Virus record (IMG/VR): IMGVR_UViG_2913112809_000002
Origin: a virus
Lineage: Duplodnaviria; Heunggongvirae; Uroviricota; Caudoviricetes
Strand: one strand, 5' to 3'
Length of the DNA stretch: 64,000 nt
The position numbers and the translations under genes were made by a program. How positions within the stretch are numbered: position 1 is the stretch's first letter; each line of letters begins with the position of its first letter. A model generated the notes under the pieces. It did not search any database. It was not told the DNA's origin and saw only the letters and a list, made by a program, of their open reading frames with translations. Shown here piece after piece: positions 1 to 26,865 of this stretch.

Positions 1-639
1 AGACTGGCTGGTAACGGAACGACCGGCACCGATACGTATACCGTTCGCGTATTCGTGCAACCGCTTAACTGCGCCAGAAGGAACGATACGAACAGCGCAA
101 TCATCATCCGCAACAGCCACTTTGATATCTTCCTGGGCTCTCTGTGACTCCAGTGCGATCTGCTGTTTTGCATGCTGGTTAGCCAGGGAGTTAATCTCAG
201 CGACCAACACTGGCTTCGTATAGCGCCATGCCGCCAGCCCTTGTCCGCAGAAGCTCGCCATGTCTTTCTTCTGGTCAAACTCATGACATTTCATGTTGAG
301 CTGCGCACTTAAGCTGTTGCGATGCTGAAGTTCTCCGGTGAAGTAGTCATCCAGGACTTTATAGGCTGCATATTTAAATCCGGGGTTTAGCCATGCTGCA
401 TAATCATAAGCAACAAACTTCCCGCCATATGTTCCACCGTGTACACCGCGCTCAGTAAAAACCACAGATTCGTGGTTTTTCTCCAGCTCGGCTAAGAACT
501 CTTTGGTCTGCTTGTTTCGCAGGTAGTGGTACGGAGATTCAGATTCACTTTTACCACTGGCTTTCCACATATCAGTGAGGCAGATCATGCCATCTTCACC
601 GATACGAATTGGTTGATTGAAGAGGGTTAATGATTTCAT
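1..639 (-). CDS. KilA-N domain protein (antirepressor-like cargo), 3' end cut by window
   Basis: Minus-strand ATG at 639; translation MKSLTLFNQPIRIGEDGMICLTDMWKASGK... has KilA-N signature; open to position 1. Confidence 0.65.
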   Translation of the reverse strand, partial: MKSLTLFNQPIRIGEDGMICLTDMWKASGKSESESPYHYLRNKQTKEFLAELEKNHESVVFTERGVHGGTYGGKFVAYDYAAWLNPGFKYAAYKVLDDYFTGELQHRNSLSAQLNMKCHEFDQKKDMASFCGQGLAAWRYTKPVLVAEINSLANQHAKQQIALESQRAQEDIKVAVADDDCAVRIVPSGAVKRLHEYANGIRIGAGRSVTSQS

Positions 640-791
640 AGCGTGTACCTACTCTTTGAAATGAACCTTTGCCGCACAGGAAACCAGCCCACCGAGGCTC
701 GCCAGCACTAACTGGTATCCTCAAAGGCCCATTCCAAAGGGTCAGGTTCGGTGTTTATTGTGCGCTGCGGTGCGCGGTGAAATACCGGTAC

Positions 792-824
792 AAAAATGCC
801 CCGCATCTGCGAGGCATTTTCCTG
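792..824 (-). terminator. Intrinsic terminator after lysis cassette
   Basis: GC hairpin gccccgca/tgcgaggc followed by T-run on minus strand, just downstream of Rz stop. Confidence 0.4.
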
Positions 825-857
825 AAAGTCACTTGTTAAATTTCAGTGAAATTAAAA

Positions 858-2122: not shown

Positions 2123-2198
2123 TGGTGCTGGTTAACGGACTTGAACCGCTACCCATTCGCTTACAAGGCGACTGCTCCACCACTGGAGCTAAACCAGC
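2123..2198 (-). tRNA. tRNA-like gene, anticodon UGU (Thr) by manual fold
   Basis: 76 nt; acceptor GCTGGTT/AACCAGC, D-stem GCTC/GAGC, anticodon loop CTTGTAA, T-arm GGTTCAAGTCC, encoded CCA. Confidence 0.55.
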
Positions 2199-2203
2199 AT
2201 ATT

Positions 2204-2278
2204 TGGCGGGACAGCGTGGACTCGAACCACGATAAGAAGGTTAACAGCCTTCCGTAATGACCTTTATACGACTGACCC
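2204..2278 (-). tRNA. tRNA-like gene, anticodon GUU (Asn) by manual fold; one acceptor-stem mismatch, possibly degenerate
   Basis: 75 nt; anticodon stem GAAGG/CCTTC, loop CTGTTAA, T-arm CGTGGTTCGAGTCCACG, 3' GCCA; T:T mismatch at acceptor pair 4:68. Confidence 0.4.
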
Positions 2279-13248: not shown

Positions 13249-13331
13249 GCCGCCAAGAGCGGCTTTACCGCATACCAATAATGCTTCACCCGAGGCATTT
13301 CCGTTATGTGTAAATAAATAAGGAGCACACC

Positions 13332-13472
13332 ATGCAATATGTCATTGCAGGGTGGCCTGTTGCTGGCTGCCCTTCCGAATCTTTACTTGAACGAATCACC
13401 CGTAAATTACGTGACGGATGGAAACGCCTTATCGACATACTTAATCAGCCGGGAGTTCCAAAAAATGGATAA
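13332..13472 (+). CDS. cIII: CIII (protease FtsH inhibitor)
   Basis: Manual translation MQYVIAGWPVAGCPSESLLERITRKLRDGWKRLIDILNQPGVPKNG matches lambda CIII. Confidence 0.85.
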   Translation: MQYVIAGWPVAGCPSESLLERITRKLRDGWKRLIDILNQPGVPKNG

Positions 13473-17310: not shown

Positions 17311-17840
17311 TTAAATTTAGTACTGTAAATAAAATTTAATCCTTAACCGGAGGGATTTCTGCACCCTCAGAACATCAGGAGGCCGCCCGAAAGGGCGGTA
17401 ATAAAAATGGCAGAATTAACTAAAGAATGGTTGCAACAAACAATTACTGATATTCAGGTCAATTGAGGTGAGAAACGCGGATGGAAAATTGTTTAGTGCC
17501 GTATCTGGTGCGGTTCGGGGCGTCGTCGTTAACAGTTGTGCCGCATGTCCTGGTGGCTGACAACGTCATCCCGGCACCGAAACGTCGTACCGGTATTGCA
17601 GCGGCACGCCGTGCAGCAAAGAAACGCAGGAGAGCAAAGCGATGAAAAACCGTAAAGCAAAACTGCTTACAGCAAAGCCCGGGCAGCTTATCCGCATCTC
17701 AAATCGACTTGTTGTTCGTTATGCGCCTTCTGGCCTTGCCAGGTGGTTACCAACGCATTTTTACGGTGTCAGGCGACGTAGAAGTGCGGCACAAAACCGC
17801 TGGAGAAATCACGGTTCTAGGCAAATTAAATGGGAGTGAT

Positions 17841-18591: not shown

Positions 18592-18755
18592 CCTGGCCTG
18601 AAGCATTCACAACGGTAGGAATTGCAATGGCGGTGGCGCTGGTGGTGTATTCGATTTGCCGCTGGGGTTGACGTAATTACTAATCCGGGGCTATATTTCC
18701 GACGCGCCAGCAAAATCTGGCGTCGGGATTAGCACCCCGGATGTTTACGGAGCGA

Positions 18756-18781
18756 TATGAGACGCGCCCGCGTCTTTTTTT
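18756..18781 (+). terminator. Intrinsic terminator ending early-left operon
   Basis: agacgcg-ccc-cgcgtct hairpin followed by T7. Confidence 0.55.
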
Positions 18782-18945
18782 CATATCGTTTGCACAGTCA
18801 CATTCGCGATTTATGGCGGGCTGTGTGGGGGAGCCGAAAGGCTCGCCGGTTTCCGTACCCGGTAGTGCTAACCCCGCACAGTTCGCCACCACGATGATTA
18901 GCACCTGACGGTGGCGATAATGTCCAAATGTACGGAGTAATCGTT

Positions 18946-22744: not shown

Positions 22745-22820
<76 letters not shown>

Positions 22821-22823
22821 TAT

Positions 22824-22898
<75 letters not shown>

Positions 22899-23120
22899 TA
22901 GTAGTAAGGCGAGATTGTGTTATGCACTGACACATTATATATGTGGGGATGGTTTTTGGCCTCTTTATCCACGTCCCGTTCTGTAATGAGTGATACCAAT
23001 TGCAGTCCAGTGCTATTTTTTTACACCATCGGAATGGTGCATCATCCCGATGTTGTAAACATCGCTAAACGTGACATTGAGATTAATCATATATTAATCA
23101 AAATCTGGTAATACATCCTT

Positions 23121-23148
23121 AACCGCCGAACCAGGCGGTTTTTTTTAT
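23121..23148 (+). terminator. Intrinsic terminator after tRNA pair
   Basis: accgcc-gaacca-ggcggt hairpin followed by T9. Confidence 0.55.
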
Positions 23149-23420
23149 TTCTTCTCCGGACAAAAAAAAGACACGAGCATCCTGGAATACTCGTGGGACA
23201 AGGTACTTGGTTAGCAATTTGCGAGAGGGTGAAAAAAATGGCGCGGCTGTCGGATTAAAGCCGCGGGACAAAGTCCATGAAGAATAATAAGTATCAGTCT
23301 CCTACAGGAGACGAGTTGATATTACTAAGCTTTAAAAATGGTTTAAATCCTCAGATTAACCTTAATTTCAGGTAAGTCTTATTTCATTTCTTCGCGCCGC
23401 GCCCGGCGCACATCAAAAAC

Positions 23421-23524
23421 CACAGAGCCTTTCAGGGGTGAGCTTACGGGATGGTCAGTGTGACTTTCTCTGTGGGCTGGTCACTCCTGGGGCGCAGGCT
23501 CACCCACTAAAAGGAAAAGTCACG
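23421..23524 (+). promoter_or_regulatory. Conserved ~100-nt leader element, copy B1
   Basis: Homologous to 25646..25754 and to minus-strand 640..760. Confidence 0.45.
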
Positions 23525-23950
23525 ATGTTTGGTATTTTCAAAAAGAAAACCCGCAAGGCCATTACCGAAGTGAAGAAGATGGAGAACCGCGACGCAGTGG
23601 AGGCGACCGTCTGGGGTGCGTATTCCATTGCATACGCTGACGGCACCTGTGACGCGAAAGAAATCGCGGTACTGGAGAAAACCATTGCAGCACTTCCTGC
23701 CTTTGCGCCGTTCTCCGGTGAGATTGCACAAATGAGCGCAAATATCCGCGCCCGTTATGAAGCGTCACCGCGTAGCGCGAATGCTCAGGCATTGCGTGAA
23801 CTGGCTGATGTGGCAGGAACAGACGACGCGGTGAATGTGCTGTGCCTGTGTCTGGATATCGCTGACCAGGATGGAATTGGTCCGGAGGAAGAAGCACAAC
23901 TCAAGAAAATTGCTCAGGCGCTTCAGCTACCGCTGGAGCAGTACCTGTGA
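23525..23950 (+). CDS. TerB-like domain protein (cargo between tRNAs and lysis genes)
   Basis: 141 aa MFGIFKKKTRKAITEVKKMENRDAVEATVWGAYSIAYADG..., helical; TerB assignment from recollection only. Confidence 0.45.
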   Translation: MFGIFKKKTRKAITEVKKMENRDAVEATVWGAYSIAYADGTCDAKEIAVLEKTIAALPAFAPFSGEIAQMSANIRARYEASPRSANAQALRELADVAGTDDAVNVLCLCLDIADQDGIGPEEEAQLKKIAQALQLPLEQYL

Positions 23951-24037
23951 AAAGTGCGCGCCTTGTGCTGGCTGCCATCCTGCTGTTTCTGGTAGTGGCG
24001 GTGGATTTCACCGGACGGCTGATGTCGGTGCTGGCAG

Positions 24038-24583
24038 ATGGTGTGCTGGTGGCGATGGTGCTGGTCGTGCTCCGGCCTTTACTGCGCAAATCTGAATAAC
24101 ACCACACAAAAGGCATCTGCGGGTGCCTTTGACGGGGTGTTGTTTTTTACGGGCCGCTGGTGGCCCTTTTTTATTTGCAGGAGAAGTTATGGCAGCAGAA
24201 CCTTGTCTGGTGGCGGGGCGGTGGGGCTGACGATAGGTGGAGCCAGTGTATTCGGGATTCTGACCAACACCGATTTCGGCGTGGTTATTGGCGCGTTTGC
24301 AGGGGCGCTTTTTGTTGTCACACAGCAAAAGGAAGTGCCTGTCTGGCGGATGTGTATCCACCTGCTGGTTGCTTTCGTGGTTGGCGTACTTGGTGCGGGT
24401 GTGGCTGCGTCTTTCATGCAGTGGTTAACGCACTACGACGACAAGCCACTGGACGCTCTGTGTGCGGTTGGTGTTTCAGCCCTGTCAATTAAGGCGCTGA
24501 CGTTCCTGTATCAGCAGGAGATTACATCGCTGTTCGGTTTTCTGACGAAGCTGCGCGGCGGAGGAGGAGGAAATGGTAAGTGA
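24038..24583 (+). CDS. Membrane protein (2-3 TM), possible holin/antiholin; start uncertain
   Basis: Hydrophobic segments; good RBS+ATG at 24189 is in a different frame. Confidence 0.3.
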   Translation: MVCWWRWCWSCSGLYCANLNNTTQKASAGAFDGVLFFTGRWWPFFICRRSYGSRTLSGGGAVGLTIGGASVFGILTNTDFGVVIGAFAGALFVVTQQKEVPVWRMCIHLLVAFVVGVLGAGVAASFMQWLTHYDDKPLDALCAVGVSALSIKALTFLYQQEITSLFGFLTKLRGGGGGNGK

Positions 24584-24848
24584 TGTTGCCGGGCAGGTGA
24601 ATGTATTCGTCTGTGTGGCTGTTGTGCTGGGATTGCTCGTGTTCCGGTGGAGGGATGCGGCCCACAAACCCGTCATGGCCTGGCTGACTTATCTGCTGAT
24701 GCTGGGATACGCAATTATTCCGCTGCGCTGGCTTTACGGTACCTACATGCAGTCGAGCTGGCTGGTCGTGGTGCTGAATCTTGTTTTCTGCGCACTGATA
24801 GTCTGGTCGCGTGGAAACGTATCAAAAATTATTTCATTACGGAGGTGA
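24573..24848 (+). CDS. Putative holin (three TM helices)
   Basis: 91 aa, SD ggagga before ATG, immediately upstream of endolysin. Confidence 0.45.
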   Translation: MVSDVAGQVNVFVCVAVVLGLLVFRWRDAAHKPVMAWLTYLLMLGYAIIPLRWLYGTYMQSSWLVVVLNLVFCALIVWSRGNVSKIISLRR

Positions 24849-24850
24849 GT

Positions 24851-25228
24851 ATGCCGGGGAAATTCAGATTCAGTCGTCGTAGCGAAAAAAATCTGGAGGG
24901 CGTCAAACCACAGCTGGTTGCCGTTGTTCGCCGTGCGCTGGAACTGACGGATGTTGATTTCGGTATTACGGAAGGTCTGCGCACGAAAGAACGCCAGAAA
25001 CAGCTGGTTGCTGAAGGAAAAAGCCAGACCATGAACAGCCGCCACCTGACCGGTGATGCGGTGGATGTTGTGGCCTACATTGGCAGCCAGGTGTCATGGG
25101 ACTGGCCTCTGTACGAGAAAATCGCGCATGCATTTAAGCAGGCTGCCGCAGAGCTGGGAACTGCCATCGAATGGGGTGGGGACTGGCGGACGCTTAAAGA
25201 CGGCCCACATTTTCAATTGAAACGATAG
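24851..25228 (+). CDS. Endolysin, peptidase M15 family (L-alanyl-D-glutamate peptidase type)
   Basis: MPGKFRFSRRSEKNLEGVKPQLVAV...H..D..DV...W.DGPHFQL motifs. Confidence 0.7.
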   Translation: MPGKFRFSRRSEKNLEGVKPQLVAVVRRALELTDVDFGITEGLRTKERQKQLVAEGKSQTMNSRHLTGDAVDVVAYIGSQVSWDWPLYEKIAHAFKQAAAELGTAIEWGGDWRTLKDGPHFQLKR

Positions 25229-25298
25229 CTTGCAAAACATACAGGGCCGCCATGAGCGGCTTTTTTATTGCTCAAAAAACGAAAGAACGGAGGTACGT

Positions 25299-25580
25299 AT
25301 GTACGCACTGAAAAAAATTACGGTAACTGAAGATGGTCGCCAGGTTGAGGAAGTGCATGTCCTGGGGGATATGTATCGTCTGGAATTTTACCCGCGTAAT
25401 ACCCATCTTGCAGCGCAGGTTGAGTATTGTCGGGACGGGAATATTCCATGCATTTCTGTAGAAAAAACGGATGAGGCTTATATCACTACGCTGAATGGCG
25501 ATACGGTGCGTTGCATTTGTCGCGGTGACAGCAAAGCCCGGAATGAAATAGCCAGATGTCGCGCCCATACAGATAAATAA
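25299..25580 (+). CDS. Hypothetical Cys-rich protein
   Basis: 93 aa, between terminator-like hairpins. Confidence 0.35.
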   Translation: MYALKKITVTEDGRQVEEVHVLGDMYRLEFYPRNTHLAAQVEYCRDGNIPCISVEKTDEAYITTLNGDTVRCICRGDSKARNEIARCRAHTDK

Positions 25581-25645
25581 AAAGCAAAATACAAGGCTGC
25601 AACGAGTGGCCTTGTTTATCTCAGCACTTCGCACGGTGCGCATAA

Positions 25646-25754
25646 AACAGAGAATCTTTCAGGATGAGCCTTGAGGAAAACCGGTAGTGGTCTGGTTAAC
25701 CCTCTCTGGCTGGTTATTCCTGTGCGCAAGGTTCATCACTAAAAGGAATAAACC
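25646..25754 (+). promoter_or_regulatory. Conserved ~100-nt leader element, copy B2
   Basis: Homologous to 23421..23524; ends at ATG of antirepressor. Confidence 0.45.
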
Positions 25755-26450
25755 ATGAACGAGATGATTTCTGTCGATCATGAAATATCCATGAGCAGTC
25801 TGGACTTCCTGAATAACATTATTAATCCAGCTCGTATAGAGGCTGGAGAAGTCCCTCACGAACCGCGTAAGTTTCTTGCAAAAATTGAAGACGAGCTTGA
25901 GCTTGATGGAACCGGAAAAAAATTCCGGTTAAACAATAACCAGACAAGAACAGCATATTACGATCTGGACTTCGACCAAATGATGCTCGTTGGCATGAGA
26001 GAGTCTAAGGCTGTTCGGCGTTCTGTGCTGGCAAGACTTAAAGCGATGCACGGTATACAAATTCCTCAGACCTTACCTGATGCATTGCGATTTGCGGCAA
26101 AATTGGCAGAGCAAAAAGCAGAGCTGGAAAATAAACTGGCAATAGCGGCACCGAAAGCTGAATTTGTTGATAATTATGTTGAGGCATCCGGCCTGATGGG
26201 GTTCAGGGAGGTTGCTAAATTGCTCGGTATTAGAGAAACCGATTTCCGGCTGTTTTTGCTGGAGAACGGCATAATGTATCGTCTTGCCGGAAAAATGACG
26301 CCTTACTCACATCACCTGGATGCTGGTCGTTTTAGCGTGAAAACCGGAGAAGCAGGCAATGGTCATGCTTTTACACAGGTTAAGTTCACTCCAAAAGGCA
26401 TTCAGTGGGTTGCTGGCTTGATCGCTGCTTGGAGAGCCACCGCAGCATGA
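25755..26450 (+). CDS. Antirepressor-like protein (KilA-C-type C-terminal domain)
   Basis: 231 aa; C-terminal FVDNYVEASGLMGFREVAKLLGIRETDFRLFLLENGIMY. Confidence 0.6.
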   Translation: MNEMISVDHEISMSSLDFLNNIINPARIEAGEVPHEPRKFLAKIEDELELDGTGKKFRLNNNQTRTAYYDLDFDQMMLVGMRESKAVRRSVLARLKAMHGIQIPQTLPDALRFAAKLAEQKAELENKLAIAAPKAEFVDNYVEASGLMGFREVAKLLGIRETDFRLFLLENGIMYRLAGKMTPYSHHLDAGRFSVKTGEAGNGHAFTQVKFTPKGIQWVAGLIAAWRATAA

Positions 26451-26682: not shown

Positions 26683-26865
26683 ATGAAGCGGAAGCACTGG
26701 ACACACAGAATGCCTCGAGCGGCGGCAAAATGGGCACTGGTAGCGATACCGGTGCCTTTTTTATTGGCGGGATGCGTCAGCCTAGATAAGGCGCGTCAGC
26801 TTTTCGATACGGCTTCTCAGGTTTGCCAGCTTATTGATGGCGTTCGGCGGTGCACACAGAATTGA
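26683..26865 (+). CDS. Putative small lipoprotein
   Basis: Lipobox LLAGC after a basic N-terminus; weak RBS. Confidence 0.35.
   Translation: MKRKHWTHRMPRAAAKWALVAIPVPFLLAGCVSLDKARQLFDTASQVCQLIDGVRRCTQN

Follow-up and report, generated by a model that had tools for sequence, protein, structure and literature searches.

A conserved mRNA leader with a predicted pseudoknotted fold precedes unrelated accessory genes of enterobacterial phages and may gate their translation

Why do three genes with unrelated products carry the same non-coding stretch in front of their start codons? An earlier note on the DNA analysed here (the window, 64,000 nucleotides of phage sequence) had described ~100 nt of homologous leader upstream of these genes in two prophages, and had suggested reading it as a promoter/operator, as a structured 5' UTR or as a leader dependent on antitermination. 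The homology of the three stretches is borne out by a MAFFT alignment, by the shared-core motif, of which the window has 3 occurrences where 100 shuffles lead one to expect 0.00, and by a covariance model. The model was derived from 46 relatives; an unfiltered run over the entire window gave exactly three significant matches, namely copy 2 (77.3 bits, E 6.4e-15), copy 1 (77.1 bits, E 7e-15) and copy 3 (59.9 bits, E 4e-11); the runner-up reached 10 bits. The genes behind the copies are unrelated and have different Pfam domains. The leaders and their cargo genes are as follows.

23391..23527, plus strand: leader copy 1, a long form of the TerB subtype that reaches the ATG of the TerB-like ORF
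25621..25757, plus strand: leader copy 2, a long form that reaches the ATG of the Ant-like ORF
637..778, minus strand: leader copy 3, a long form in which 7 nt are inserted between segments a and b and which reaches the KilA-N ATG (639-637)
23525..23950, plus strand: cargo 1, TerB-like ORF of 141 aa from the ORF listing, ATG at 23525 (Pfam PF05099)
25755..26450, plus strand: cargo 2, antirepressor-like ORF of 231 aa with an ANT/KilAC domain, ATG at 25755 (Pfam PF03374)
1..639, minus strand: cargo 3, KilA-N and ORF11CD3 ORF that runs off the window (Pfam PF04383, PF10549)

The extent first assigned to the leader needs correcting at both ends. The true start lies ~25-30 nt further upstream. The missed extension is a small GC hairpin, H0 (23394-23409, 25624-25639 and 775-762). 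At its 3' end the leader runs through the Shine-Dalgarno sequence to the ATG, so that its 3' strand is the ribosome-binding site, a point overlooked at first reading. The three copies in the window are ~135 nt long, within a family range of ~110-145 nt.

The leader is widespread. Copy 2 has a match in 305 phage records and copy 1 in 30, and an nhmmer search gave 347 matches in 310 fetched loci, which reduce to 195 distinct leaders. They occur in Escherichia, Salmonella, Yersinia, Serratia, Pantoea, Erwinia and related genera. Matches were present in 755 of 5426 complete E. coli genomes (14%), at a median of 4 places per genome, and no existing annotation lies under the leader among the E. coli matches listed. 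In the Stx phage 933W the leader abuts ant between R and Rz, in Salmonella phage Oslo the cassette follows Rz/Rz1, and in the Erwinia jumbo phage Caitlin the leader stands upstream of terB. An ORF follows directly in 331 of 342 instances, and the cargo belongs to at least 12 unrelated families. These include P22_AR_N, Rha, ANT, KilA-N, Bro-N, AntA, TerB, HNH_3 and glycosyltransferase types, proteins that resemble a portion of the central tail fibre J, and families without a known function; one cargo family is of the 'moron' class in PHROGs. The leader is thus independent of its cargo. The subtype of copy 3 also fronts KilA-N, Rha and HNH genes; with one subtype before different genes, cassette exchange at the leader has clearly happened.

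In the fold that covariation supports, the loop of the 5' hairpin H0 pairs with a 5-6-nt bulge (segment j) to form a pseudoknot, PK-A. Helices P2 and then P3 build a long irregular hairpin in which the Shine-Dalgarno sequence is the 3' strand of the basal helix and a conserved 5' CCUUU serves as anti-Shine-Dalgarno. Helix P1 arises where the apical loop of P3 pairs with the segment that directly precedes P2. A loop insertion of the long form, to which all three window copies belong, also pairs around the AUG (PK-C). The predicted elements of copy 1 are listed with their basis.

23394..23409, plus strand: H0, stem GCGCC (23394-98) / GGCGC (23405-09) with loop GCGCCC (23399-23404); sequence and family covariation
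23420..23427, plus strand: segment a, CCACAGAG, pairing with a' as P1; more than 30 compensatory a/a' variants in the family
23428..23443, plus strand: segment b, 5' strand of P2, with the anti-Shine-Dalgarno CCTTT (23428-32) and GGGGTGAGC (23435-43); RNAalifold
23458..23467, plus strand: loop insertion, GTGTGACTTT; PK-C family test
23468..23475, plus strand: segment a', CTCTGTGG, 3' strand of P1 in the apical loop region; a/a' covariation
23490..23495, plus strand: segment j, GGGCGC, pairing with the H0 loop GCGCCC (PK-A); 6-bp complement
23498..23514, plus strand: segment b', 3' strand of P2, with GCTCACCC (23498-23505) and the Shine-Dalgarno AAAGG (23510-14); RNAalifold

For PK-C of copy 1, the insertion has a core, GTGACTTT, whose complement AAAGTCAC (23516-23523) lies shortly before the ATG; in locus L345, which carries a near-identical relative of copy 1, the complement spans 9 nt. 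The corresponding elements of copies 2 and 3 are the following.

25624..25639, plus strand: copy 2 H0 (GCAC/GTGC); pairing analysis
25648..25653, plus strand: copy 2 segment a, CAGAGA, pairing with a' TCTCTG (25703-25708) as P1; compensatory changes
25655..25673, plus strand: copy 2 5' strands of P2, TCTTT (25655-59) and GATGAGCCTTG (25663-73); MFE fold and pair counts
25674-84, plus strand: copy 2 5' strand of P3, AGGAAAACCGG; MFE fold and pair counts
25703-08, 25710-21 and 25722-26, plus strand: copy 2 a', 3' strand of P3 and segment j
25727-37 and 25742-46, plus strand: copy 2 3' strand of P2 and Shine-Dalgarno AAAGG
762..775, minus strand: copy 3 H0 (GCGC-ACCGCA-GCGC); pairing analysis
748..753, minus strand: copy 3 segment a, CACCGA, pairing with a' TCGGTG (695-690) as P1; compensatory changes
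652..739, minus strand: copy 3 core of P2 and P3; helices in the MFE fold

PK-A joins the H0 loop core CGCAC (25630-34) to GTGCG (25722-26) in copy 2, and CCGCA (770-766) to TGCGG (676-672) in copy 3. In the core of copy 3, P2 pairs GAATGGGCCTTTG (734-722) with CAAAGGTTCATTT (671-659), basal P2 pairs CTTTG (739-735) with the CAAAG of the Shine-Dalgarno CAAAGAG (658-652), and P3 pairs AGGATACCAG (721-712) with CTGGTTTCCT (687-678). The unconstrained MFE folds of copies 2 and 3 contain P2 and P3 with the Shine-Dalgarno sequence paired; that of copy 1 departs from them by using an alternative b/d pairing.

Comparison across the family strongly supports a structured RNA, with the pairings kept at the RNA level by compensatory changes, and the structured 5' UTR among the initial suggestions gains most from it. 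Overall, 92-95% of the cells in the proposed helices are paired against 29-49% in controls with the partners slid. For the short form (39 sequences) the values are 94.7% against 29-46%, and for the long form (25 sequences, including window copy 2 and 933W) 92.0% against 30-49%; in each set the covariation score was reached by 0 of 500 shuffles. All 6 pairs of the short-form P1 vary on both sides. RNAalifold recovered the H0 stem and P2, with compensatory changes in 13 of 18 predicted pairs. When partners were permuted in the model-based alignment, complementarity exceeded that of the shuffled partners for the H0 loop and j (5.77 against 4.57+-0.08, over ~27 loop/j variants), for a and a' (6.64 against 4.76+-0.09), and for the loop insertion and the start-codon region (6.08 against 4.97+-0.16). 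A-U/U-A swaps were seen in the start-codon-region helix of the long-form set. H0 covaries with the segment ~90 nt downstream, and its own stem covaries too. Paired cells hold 59 G.U against 23 A.C on the sense strand. The basal CCUUU/AAAGG helix is paired in 99-100% of cells in both forms. Inside any one subtype P2, the Shine-Dalgarno helix, hardly varies; its covariation shows up when subtypes are compared, and in a single T-A to A-T swap, seen by eye, in locus L273. The Shine-Dalgarno sequence and/or the AUG is therefore engaged in conserved long-range pairing, as in operators of the alpha-operon type. Covariation this deep makes the fold directly testable by compensatory mutagenesis.

The leader has no counterpart in Rfam. 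A search of this kind, which the earlier note had advised, found no family for it. The 4227 covariance models of Rfam 15 gave 9 matches in the whole window at the gathering threshold, none at the three leader sites, and region 23300-25900 searched at E up to 10 gave only chance-level matches of 20 bits or less. Eight representative family loci and one short-form leader likewise had no match at the leader. The genuine matches in the window include the lambda cIII element (Lambda_thermo) at 13319-13377; C4, c4-a1b1 and isrK were found only at 18691-18893, in the same prophage as the leader. Judged from its sequences, the family is new relative to Rfam 15 and is one of putative cis-acting structured mRNA leaders.

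How the cargo genes are transcribed is suggested by the surroundings of the leader. Of 192 leaders, 159 (83%) have a terminator-like hairpin and T-run no more than 70 nt upstream of H0, with stems that vary in sequence. Such sites precede two of the window copies.

25591..25622, plus strand: terminator-like hairpin ACAAGGCTGCAACGAGTGGCCTTGT with a T-rich tail, directly 5' of copy 2
792..818, minus strand: terminator-like hairpin AATGCCTCGCAGATGCGGGGCATT and T-run that follow an Rz-like gene and precede copy 3

A terminator directly upstream of copy 1 is absent. The usual order is terminator, leader and cargo gene. These cassettes sit in late regions of lambdoid and P22-like prophages, most commonly right behind the lysis genes, and the upstream neighbours are often Rz/Rz1. 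Terminator-like sites also lie past the cargo, at 24151-24166 (~200 nt past TerB, from which a small ORF separates it) and at 26732-26757 (~280 nt downstream of Ant). No sigma-70-like promoter adjoins any of the three copies, the nearest being at 23077-23104, ~290 nt upstream of copy 1. No promoter-like site was found between the upstream terminator and the leader, and the stretch from the terminator to segment a lacks a conserved -10 or -35 hexamer. With terminators this frequent and promoter-like sites missing after them, the antitermination-dependent leader proposed at the outset is plausible, and transcription of the cargo may depend on antitermination. It cannot be taken for a universal requirement, because the element also occurs in Erwinia jumbo phages, which may or may not use Q-type antitermination.

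We consider it probable, though by no means assured, that the element is a portable, cargo-independent leader which lies in antiterminated late transcription and gates translation by burying the ribosome-binding site. The cargo would be transcribed only if antiterminated (Q-modified) late transcription passes the upstream terminator, and the folded leader would keep translation weak or silent unless the fold opens or does not form. Candidate openers are co-transcriptional kinetics, temperature, a protein, a small molecule or a nuclease; the few conserved unpaired nucleotides give no hint of the trigger. P1 and P3 (~7+10 bp) could stack alongside P2 (~17 bp), and all pairings could then coexist. 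Since the helix lengths permit this arrangement, one compact fold could bury the whole translation-initiation region, a picture that we infer from helix-length arithmetic. P1 and basal P2 might instead be mutually exclusive.

There is a rather low chance that the leader goes further and belongs to a new phage-specific class of RNA that senses or catalyses, as a riboswitch or ribozyme having three pseudoknot interactions, and that couples translation of antirepressor-like, defence-like and other accessory genes to a cellular signal. Were this so, the portable leader would exert the same control on any gene placed behind it, in hundreds of enterobacterial prophages, Shiga-toxin phages included. 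The riboswitch is a specific version of the gating explanation, in which the pseudoknotted fold would be an aptamer and a small molecule or ion would set the conformer that hides the Shine-Dalgarno sequence. Several pseudoknots with the Shine-Dalgarno sequence inside a conserved structure, as in SAM-II and preQ1-II, fit a riboswitch, as does the position 5' of ORFs in nearly every instance, and covariation in four long-range pairings seems beyond the need of a simple attenuator. We nevertheless regard it as unlikely, since the cargo families share no common pathway or plausible ligand, the highly conserved unpaired positions are few, with the invariant ones mostly in P2, and an Rfam match is absent. 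If true, antirepressor-like and other accessory genes would be expressed according to host physiology.

A role in RNA processing is rather improbable. The leader would be a self-cleaving ribozyme or a substrate of RNase III, RNase E or RNase P, at which the cargo mRNA is cut from late or terminator read-through RNA, setting its stability or activating its translation. P2 and P3 together form an irregular ~26 bp duplex with internal loops, a form known from the RNase III sites of phage T7. P1 and P2 cross as they do in HDV-like ribozymes, the leader lies at gene boundaries in polycistronic late operons, such as R/Rz in 933W, and phage lambda uses RNase III-sensitive leader structures, with a cIII element in this same window. 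On the other side, the ribozyme families of Rfam gave no match at E up to 10, the short form has no hairpin equivalent to P3 of HDV, so that the overall topology is not HDV-like, and covariation between the loop insertion and the start codon is explained more simply by control of translation initiation.

A function at the DNA level, whether as a promoter whose operator binds a phage or host regulator or solely as conserved boundary homology for recombination of cargo modules, is very improbable. H0 is a GC-rich palindrome, many long-form copies are preceded by TTTCACC, a weak -35-like hexamer, and one leader subtype stands before KilA-N, Rha or HNH cargo. Against this, positions 40-100 nt apart co-vary in ways that preserve Watson-Crick or G.U pairs, the sense strand favours G.U above A.C, and the region after H0 varies in length by more than 10 nt and lacks a conserved -10 hexamer. 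Together with the sigma-70-like site missing beside every copy, these findings count against the promoter/operator of the earlier note. Recombination homology requires no conserved structure, and the exchange of modules seems to result from the leader rather than to be its role.

Just as slim is the chance of a trans-acting RNA, with the leader either targeted by C4/isrK of the same prophage or processed into an sRNA. C4 RNA of phage P1 controls an antirepressor in the c4-ant system, the prophage here has a bona fide isrK / c4-a1b1 / C4 cluster, and L345 combines another C4 with a TerB-type leader. In RNAduplex, C4/isrK against the three leaders gave z of -0.04 to -1.3, which is indistinguishable from shuffled leaders; moreover, the leader passes directly into the ORF with no terminator between them, and it occurs in Erwinia jumbo phages, where the stretch examined held no C4.

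An N-terminal in-frame coding extension common to the three genes, the counter-reading that the earlier note itself had named, has next to no chance and is ruled out by in-frame stops: of the three copies only copy 1 has an open frame (GTG 23438 to ATG 23525), stops lie 2 and 4 codons upstream of the ATG in copies 2 and 3, within 39 codons in 160 of 195 distinct leaders and within 30 codons in 34 of 46 leaders before MF-initiating (TerB-type) proteins, leader indels are not multiples of three, and a Shine-Dalgarno sequence stands ahead of each ATG.

If the leader gates translation, it would be a widespread layer of control with no annotation under the matches listed. Under its control would be proteins of the antirepressor type, which are able to set off the induction of other prophages, and also TerB, homing-type HNH nucleases and further accessory genes. 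Such a leader would be a rare cargo-indifferent regulatory RNA, behaving equally on unrelated genes, and would mark a recombination hot spot for accessory-gene exchange. It would offer a practical handle for discovering phage accessory genes and possibly a portable part for expression control.

Among known systems, HDV-like, pistol, twister, hatchet and hammerhead ribozymes had no model match (Rfam, E up to 10). The leader shares with HDV-like ribozymes a 6-8-bp P1 that encloses the 5' strand of P2, with the 3' strand of P2 downstream, so that the helices cross. Besides lacking P3 in its short form, it differs in the helix straddling the 3' strand of P1, which has 9-10 bp whereas P1.1 of HDV has 2. 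The partner of its pseudoknot is on the 3' strand of the internal loop, and that of pistol on the 5' strand. The immI region of P1/P7 (C4 against icd-ant; RF01695, RF03163) likewise controls an antirepressor at the RNA level through a leader and ribosome-binding site, but the phage leader matches neither C4 nor c4-a1b1, has no significant complementarity to the resident C4 and also precedes genes other than antirepressors. The lambda cIII element (RF01804) is also part of a lambdoid mRNA, whose alternative pairings expose or hide the ribosome-binding site. It is a 59-nt single hairpin system across the start codon of one conserved gene, whereas the phage leader is longer, pseudoknotted, cargo-independent and unrelated in sequence.

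Morons are known from lambdoid phages (Juhala et al. 2000, cited through PMC4104026). A classical moron has its own promoter upstream and a terminator downstream. The cassettes described here are moron-like in that accessory cargo is inserted between conserved late genes that are neighbours in related phages, as with ant of 933W, or after Rz/Rz1, as in Oslo and several other loci. Unlike in the classical moron, the upstream features are a terminator and a structured leader, with no promoter found.

SAM-II (RF00521) and preQ1-II (RF01054) riboswitches have the Shine-Dalgarno sequence built into a conserved pseudoknotted structure. The leader resembles them in placing it within such a fold, with no separate expression platform, but is about twice as long and lacks a model match, a metabolic cargo theme and an evident conserved ligand pocket. 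Closest in mechanism is the leader of the E. coli alpha operon (rpsM), the S4 operator (Alpha_RBS, RF00140). There, a hairpin loop and downstream sequence form a complex pseudoknot that includes the ribosome-binding site, and the conformer sets translation. The likeness is one of mechanism, with no match in sequence or model. The phage leader has more long-range pairings (PK-A, P1 and PK-C), and whereas the alpha-operon leader serves one operon, it fronts many unrelated genes.

The earlier note had proposed homology among the ~100-nt stretches upstream of the TerB-like, antirepressor-like, and KilA-N genes, and the alignment bears this out. The shared-core motif occurs three times in the window, against a mean of 0.00 in 100 shuffles. 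We built a covariance model of the leader (R1) from 46 diverse relatives and scanned the whole window with filters off. The scan gave exactly three hits, with everything else at 10 bits or below:

25621-25757, plus strand: leader copy 2; R1, 77.3 bits
23391-23527, plus strand: leader copy 1; R1, 77.1 bits
637-778, minus strand: leader copy 3; R1, 59.9 bits

The genes directly behind the leaders (the cargo) are unrelated, as first read: TerB (PF05099) behind copy 1, ANT/KilAC (PF03374) behind copy 2, and KilA-N with ORF11CD3 behind copy 3. The leader starts ~25-30 nt further upstream than first read, at a small GC hairpin (H0). The 3' limit is the ATG, and the Shine-Dalgarno sequence is included in the element.

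IMG/VR and a set of GTDB genomes, one per species, were scanned by pattern, which provided 412 loci; in 310 of these, nhmmer found 347 instances of the leader (195 distinct sequences). An ORF lies directly 3' of the leader in 331 of the 342 instances with enough flank. The hosts are spread across Enterobacterales (Escherichia, Salmonella, Citrobacter, Enterobacter, Raoultella, Siccibacter, Scandinavium, Pantoea, Erwinia, Tatumella, Serratia, Yersinia, Edwardsiella, and Providencia). In a BLAST of phage records, 305 matched the copy-2 leader and 30 the copy-1 leader. In the Stx phage 933W, where ant is an insertion separating R from Rz, the leader adjoins the ant ATG. Salmonella phage Oslo has the leader 3' of Rz and 5' of a Rha-type gene, and the Erwinia jumbo phage Caitlin has it 5' of terB among tRNA genes. 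With copy 2 alone as the query, 755 of 5426 complete E. coli genomes have a BLAST-detectable match, at a median of 4 places per genome, and the matches listed overlap no annotated feature. Two leaders are present in 36 loci, where they are of different subtypes and lie within a few kb (L060, L068, L011, L033, L126, L244, L287, L348, L372, and others). Such contigs carry, for example, a TerB-type and an HNH-type leader or a short-form and a long-form leader, paralleling the two copies of the window's plus-strand prophage. Two small contigs, L160 (392 bp, labelled Xanthomonas pisi) and L131 (700 bp, labelled Kocuria sabuli), carry a near-identical enterobacterial leader and cargo and most likely reflect assembly contamination rather than true host range. 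The copy-1 leader with the TerB start is also found, 94.9% identical, at 17464-17598 of PP818812.1 (Actinobacillus phage vB_Apl-pPE4), an unexpected recorded host for an otherwise enterobacterial leader.

The leader has a short form (~113-118 nt) and a long form (~130-145 nt), the latter with one loop enlarged by an insertion; the three copies in the window are all of the long form. From the 5' end it consists of H0 (GC stem of 4-7 bp, loop of 5-8 nt), a spacer rich in A and C, segment a, segment b beginning with CCUUU, the 5' strand of a hairpin (P3), a loop with the optional insertion followed by a', the 3' strand of P3, a bulge segment j, b', whose 3' end is the Shine-Dalgarno AAAGG, the short segment e, and the AUG. 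The b/b' helix (P2) and the H0 stem were recovered by RNAalifold, with compensatory changes in 13 of 18 predicted pairs. The a/a' helix (P1) keeps its pairing through more than 30 sequence variants (including CACAGAA/TTCTGTG, CTCAGAA/TTCTGAG, CCAAGAA/TTCTTGG, CACCGA/TCGGTG, CGTCGA/TCGACG, CCGTAGAG/CTCTACGG, GAAAGT/ACTTTC, CGAGACA/TGTCTCG, and CGATAA/TTATCG). Likewise, pairing of the H0 loop with j (PK-A) is kept in ~27 variants (including TCGCAC/GTGCGA, TCTCAC/GTGAGA, TCACAC/GTGTGA, TCGTAC/GTACGA, TCGCAT/ATGCGA, CGCCCG/TGGGCG, CGCTCG/TGAGCG, GGCTCGG/CTGAGCC, TGCCCA/TGGGCA, and CCGCA/TGCGG). P3 holds the top mutual-information pair of the family, with five pair types and 96% canonical pairing. 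A complementarity restricted to the long form links the loop insertion with the nucleotides around the AUG (PK-C); its compensated variants include TGTCGGTG/TACCGATA, TGTCGGAG/TTCCGATA, CGTCGGAGC/GCTCCGATG, and TATCGGTTG/TAATCGATG, and TGTGACTTT/AAAGTCACG in the TerB subtype.

P1 and PK-A are not in the same register in every subtype. Therefore, a single column-wise structure for all subtypes failed with both MAFFT and model-based alignments, and we counted pairs per subtype and used register-free permutation tests. Mutual-information ranking of the 195-sequence MAFFT alignment was also set aside, being dominated by subtype signal and misalignment. In the short form (39 sequences), 94.7% of cells are paired versus 29-46% with the partners slid, and both sides change in all six P1 pairs. 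In the long form (25 sequences, including window copy 2 and 933W), the values are 92.0% versus 30-49%. The covariation score of either form was reached by 0 of 500 shuffles. The alignment for the permutation tests came from a model encoding neither P1, PK-A, nor PK-C. The mean longest complement was 5.77 for the H0 loop and j (4.57 ± 0.08 with shuffled partners), 6.64 for a and a' (4.76 ± 0.09), and 6.08 for the loop insertion and the start-codon region (4.97 ± 0.16). Paired cells contain 59 G.U versus 23 A.C, an excess that assigns the structure to the sense-strand RNA. Of the options in the earlier note, a structured 5' UTR is strongly supported by compensatory pairings across relatives. A local hairpin between the P3 5' strand (c5') and the loop insertion (c3') inside P1 showed covariation not above shuffles; it is superseded by P3, in which c5' pairs with d, and by PK-C, in which c3' pairs with the start-codon region.

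With both P1 and PK-A crossing P2 and P3, the fold qualifies as a double pseudoknot at minimum, and PK-C raises this to a triple pseudoknot in the long form. Nested minimum-free-energy folds of copies 2 and 3 contain P2 and P3 with the Shine-Dalgarno sequence paired, and that of copy 1 prefers an alternative b/d pairing. P1 (6-8 bp) and P3 (9-10 bp) together equal P2 (~17 bp) in length, and the a-to-b and b-to-P3 linkers are 0-1 nt, which makes two parallel helical stacks possible. These lengths and the connectivity, rather than modelling, suggest one compact fold. At its base, a, b', e, and the loop strand would meet as a three-way junction, and at its top H0 would be docked on bulge j. Alternatively, P1 and the basal part of P2 may be mutually exclusive and form a two-state switch. 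Under either reading the Shine-Dalgarno sequence is paired in a conserved conformer, and so is the AUG in the long form.

The cargo proteins fall into 20 sequence clusters. Their domains include P22_AR_N, Phage_pRha, ANT, KilA-N (with P63C or ORF11CD3), Bro-N, and AntA, and other cargo comprises TerB, HNH_3 homing-type nucleases, a 491-aa glycosyltransferase (PHROGs class moron), proteins similar to a portion of the central tail fibre J, and several families whose function is unknown. One leader subtype is found before different cargo genes, indicating that the leader is independent of the cargo.

Of 192 leaders, 159 have a terminator-like hairpin and T-run in the 70 nt 5' of H0, at a usual distance of 4-22 nt. 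The terminator stems differ in sequence, so the terminator itself is a conserved feature of the cassette. In the window, copies 2 and 3 have a terminator directly upstream and copy 1 does not, the nearest being at 23121-23140. Scans found no sigma-70-like site between the terminator and the leader. Rz/Rz1 are frequent upstream neighbors, and each window copy shares its strand with the lysis genes next to it. From the terminator, the lack of a promoter, and the shared strand, we infer that the cargo is transcribed by antiterminated late read-through of the terminator and not from its own promoter. For the antitermination-dependent leader proposed earlier, the terminator is observed upstream of most leaders and the read-through is presumed. 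A classical moron has a promoter, whereas the leader cassette has an upstream terminator and the leader instead.

The two late regions of the window face away from each other, so it contains parts of two prophages in opposite orientation, each with a tRNA gene pair 5' of the lysis genes and leader (22745-22895, plus strand; 2126-2278, minus strand). The plus-strand endolysin (24853-25228) reads in translation as an M15/VanY-type peptidase, not a lysozyme, and RefSeq annotates an M15 family metallopeptidase at this position in similar E. coli regions. An unannotated ORF (25300-25580) lies between the endolysin and copy 2. Just 5' of the copy-3 terminator, ACAAGTGACTTTCAGG (821-836, minus strand) has one mismatch to positions 2421-2436 of the phage Oslo locus (L003). 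Within it is CTTTCAGG, a motif shared with the copy-1 and copy-2 anti-Shine-Dalgarno segment b; this may represent another pairing partner, a small RNA, or coincidence. A sok-type antitoxin RNA (RF01794; 19601-19771, plus strand; 101 bits) implies a hok/sok-like type I toxin-antitoxin locus in the prophage. In other loci, an STnc100 small RNA (L033, 7060-7262, minus strand) and an IS1222 frameshift element (L186, 5972-6089, minus strand) lie within a few kb of leaders, indicating that these late-region hot spots gather other RNA elements and insertion sequences.

We consider it fairly probable that the leader is a portable cis-acting element controlling translation initiation. The pseudoknotted fold would hold the ribosome-binding site and so set initiation on a cargo mRNA that would arise from antiterminated late transcription past the upstream terminator. 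A riboswitch would fit the architecture, but is unlikely given the heterogeneous cargo and the scarcity of conserved unpaired positions. Slightly less likely still is a ribozyme or a site of RNase processing; the long irregular duplex would suit it, as would the position within polycistronic late operons, but no model matches and PK-C is less well explained. A complete isrK/c4-a1b1/C4 cluster (18691-18893, plus strand; Rfam 74.4, 47.1, and 78.0 bits), a P1 immI-like or Gifsy-like RNA immunity module, resides in the same prophage as copies 1 and 2. Targeting of the leaders by these C4 or isrK RNAs is very improbable, since their complementarity to the leaders is not significant.

Equally improbable is a role at the DNA level as a promoter, operator, or recombination boundary, which the long-range compensatory changes contradict. 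Cassette exchange at the leader clearly happened, but it looks like a by-product. The promoter/operator suggested in the earlier note is not supported: scans found no sigma-70 promoter or operator adjoining the copies, the terminator-to-a region aligned by eye is without conserved hexamers, and the H0 palindrome covaries with a distant segment. LexA box, ops/JUMPstart, nut boxA/boxB, and CsrA GGA sites, inspected by eye, gave partial matches in single subtypes only; CGGTAG in copy 2 resembles ops but is within the variable insertion, and Rfam JUMPstart had no hit. A coding N-terminal extension, the outcome the earlier note had set against its own claim, can be dismissed given in-frame stops 2 and 4 codons 5' of the ATG in copies 2 and 3 (copy 1 is open from GTG 23438), within 39 codons in 160 of 195 distinct leaders and within 30 codons in 34 of 46 leaders of MF-initiating (TerB-type) proteins, and indel lengths between relatives that are not multiples of three.

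At gathering thresholds, Rfam 15 found sok, Lambda_thermo, isrK, c4-a1b1, C4, and four tRNAs in the whole window and nothing at the three leader sites. A permissive scan of 23300-25900 (E up to 10) gave chance-level hits only, and eight representative loci and one short-form leader likewise gave no leader match. Full-text literature searches, including the motif sequence and antirepressor, moron, or TerB with structured RNA, found no description of the leader; a 2026 preprint on the Pas small RNAs of prophages locates TerB close to PasA and PasC and does not describe it. We rate the leaders as a new family of structured regulatory elements that stands out for its cargo independence, multiple pseudoknots, and confinement to phages. 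The plus-strand prophage also has a full-length match to the lambda cIII alternative-structure (thermoregulator) element (13319-13377, plus strand; 86 bits), which marks its early-left region. By Rfam scans, the leader is not a member of the alpha-operon, SAM-II, preQ1-II, or cIII families. In mechanism, it is most similar to the alpha-operon leader, whose pseudoknot includes the ribosome-binding site, and to the SAM-II and preQ1-II riboswitches, which sequester the Shine-Dalgarno sequence in a pseudoknot. Among lambdoid phages, the cIII alternative-structure element is the closest in mechanism.
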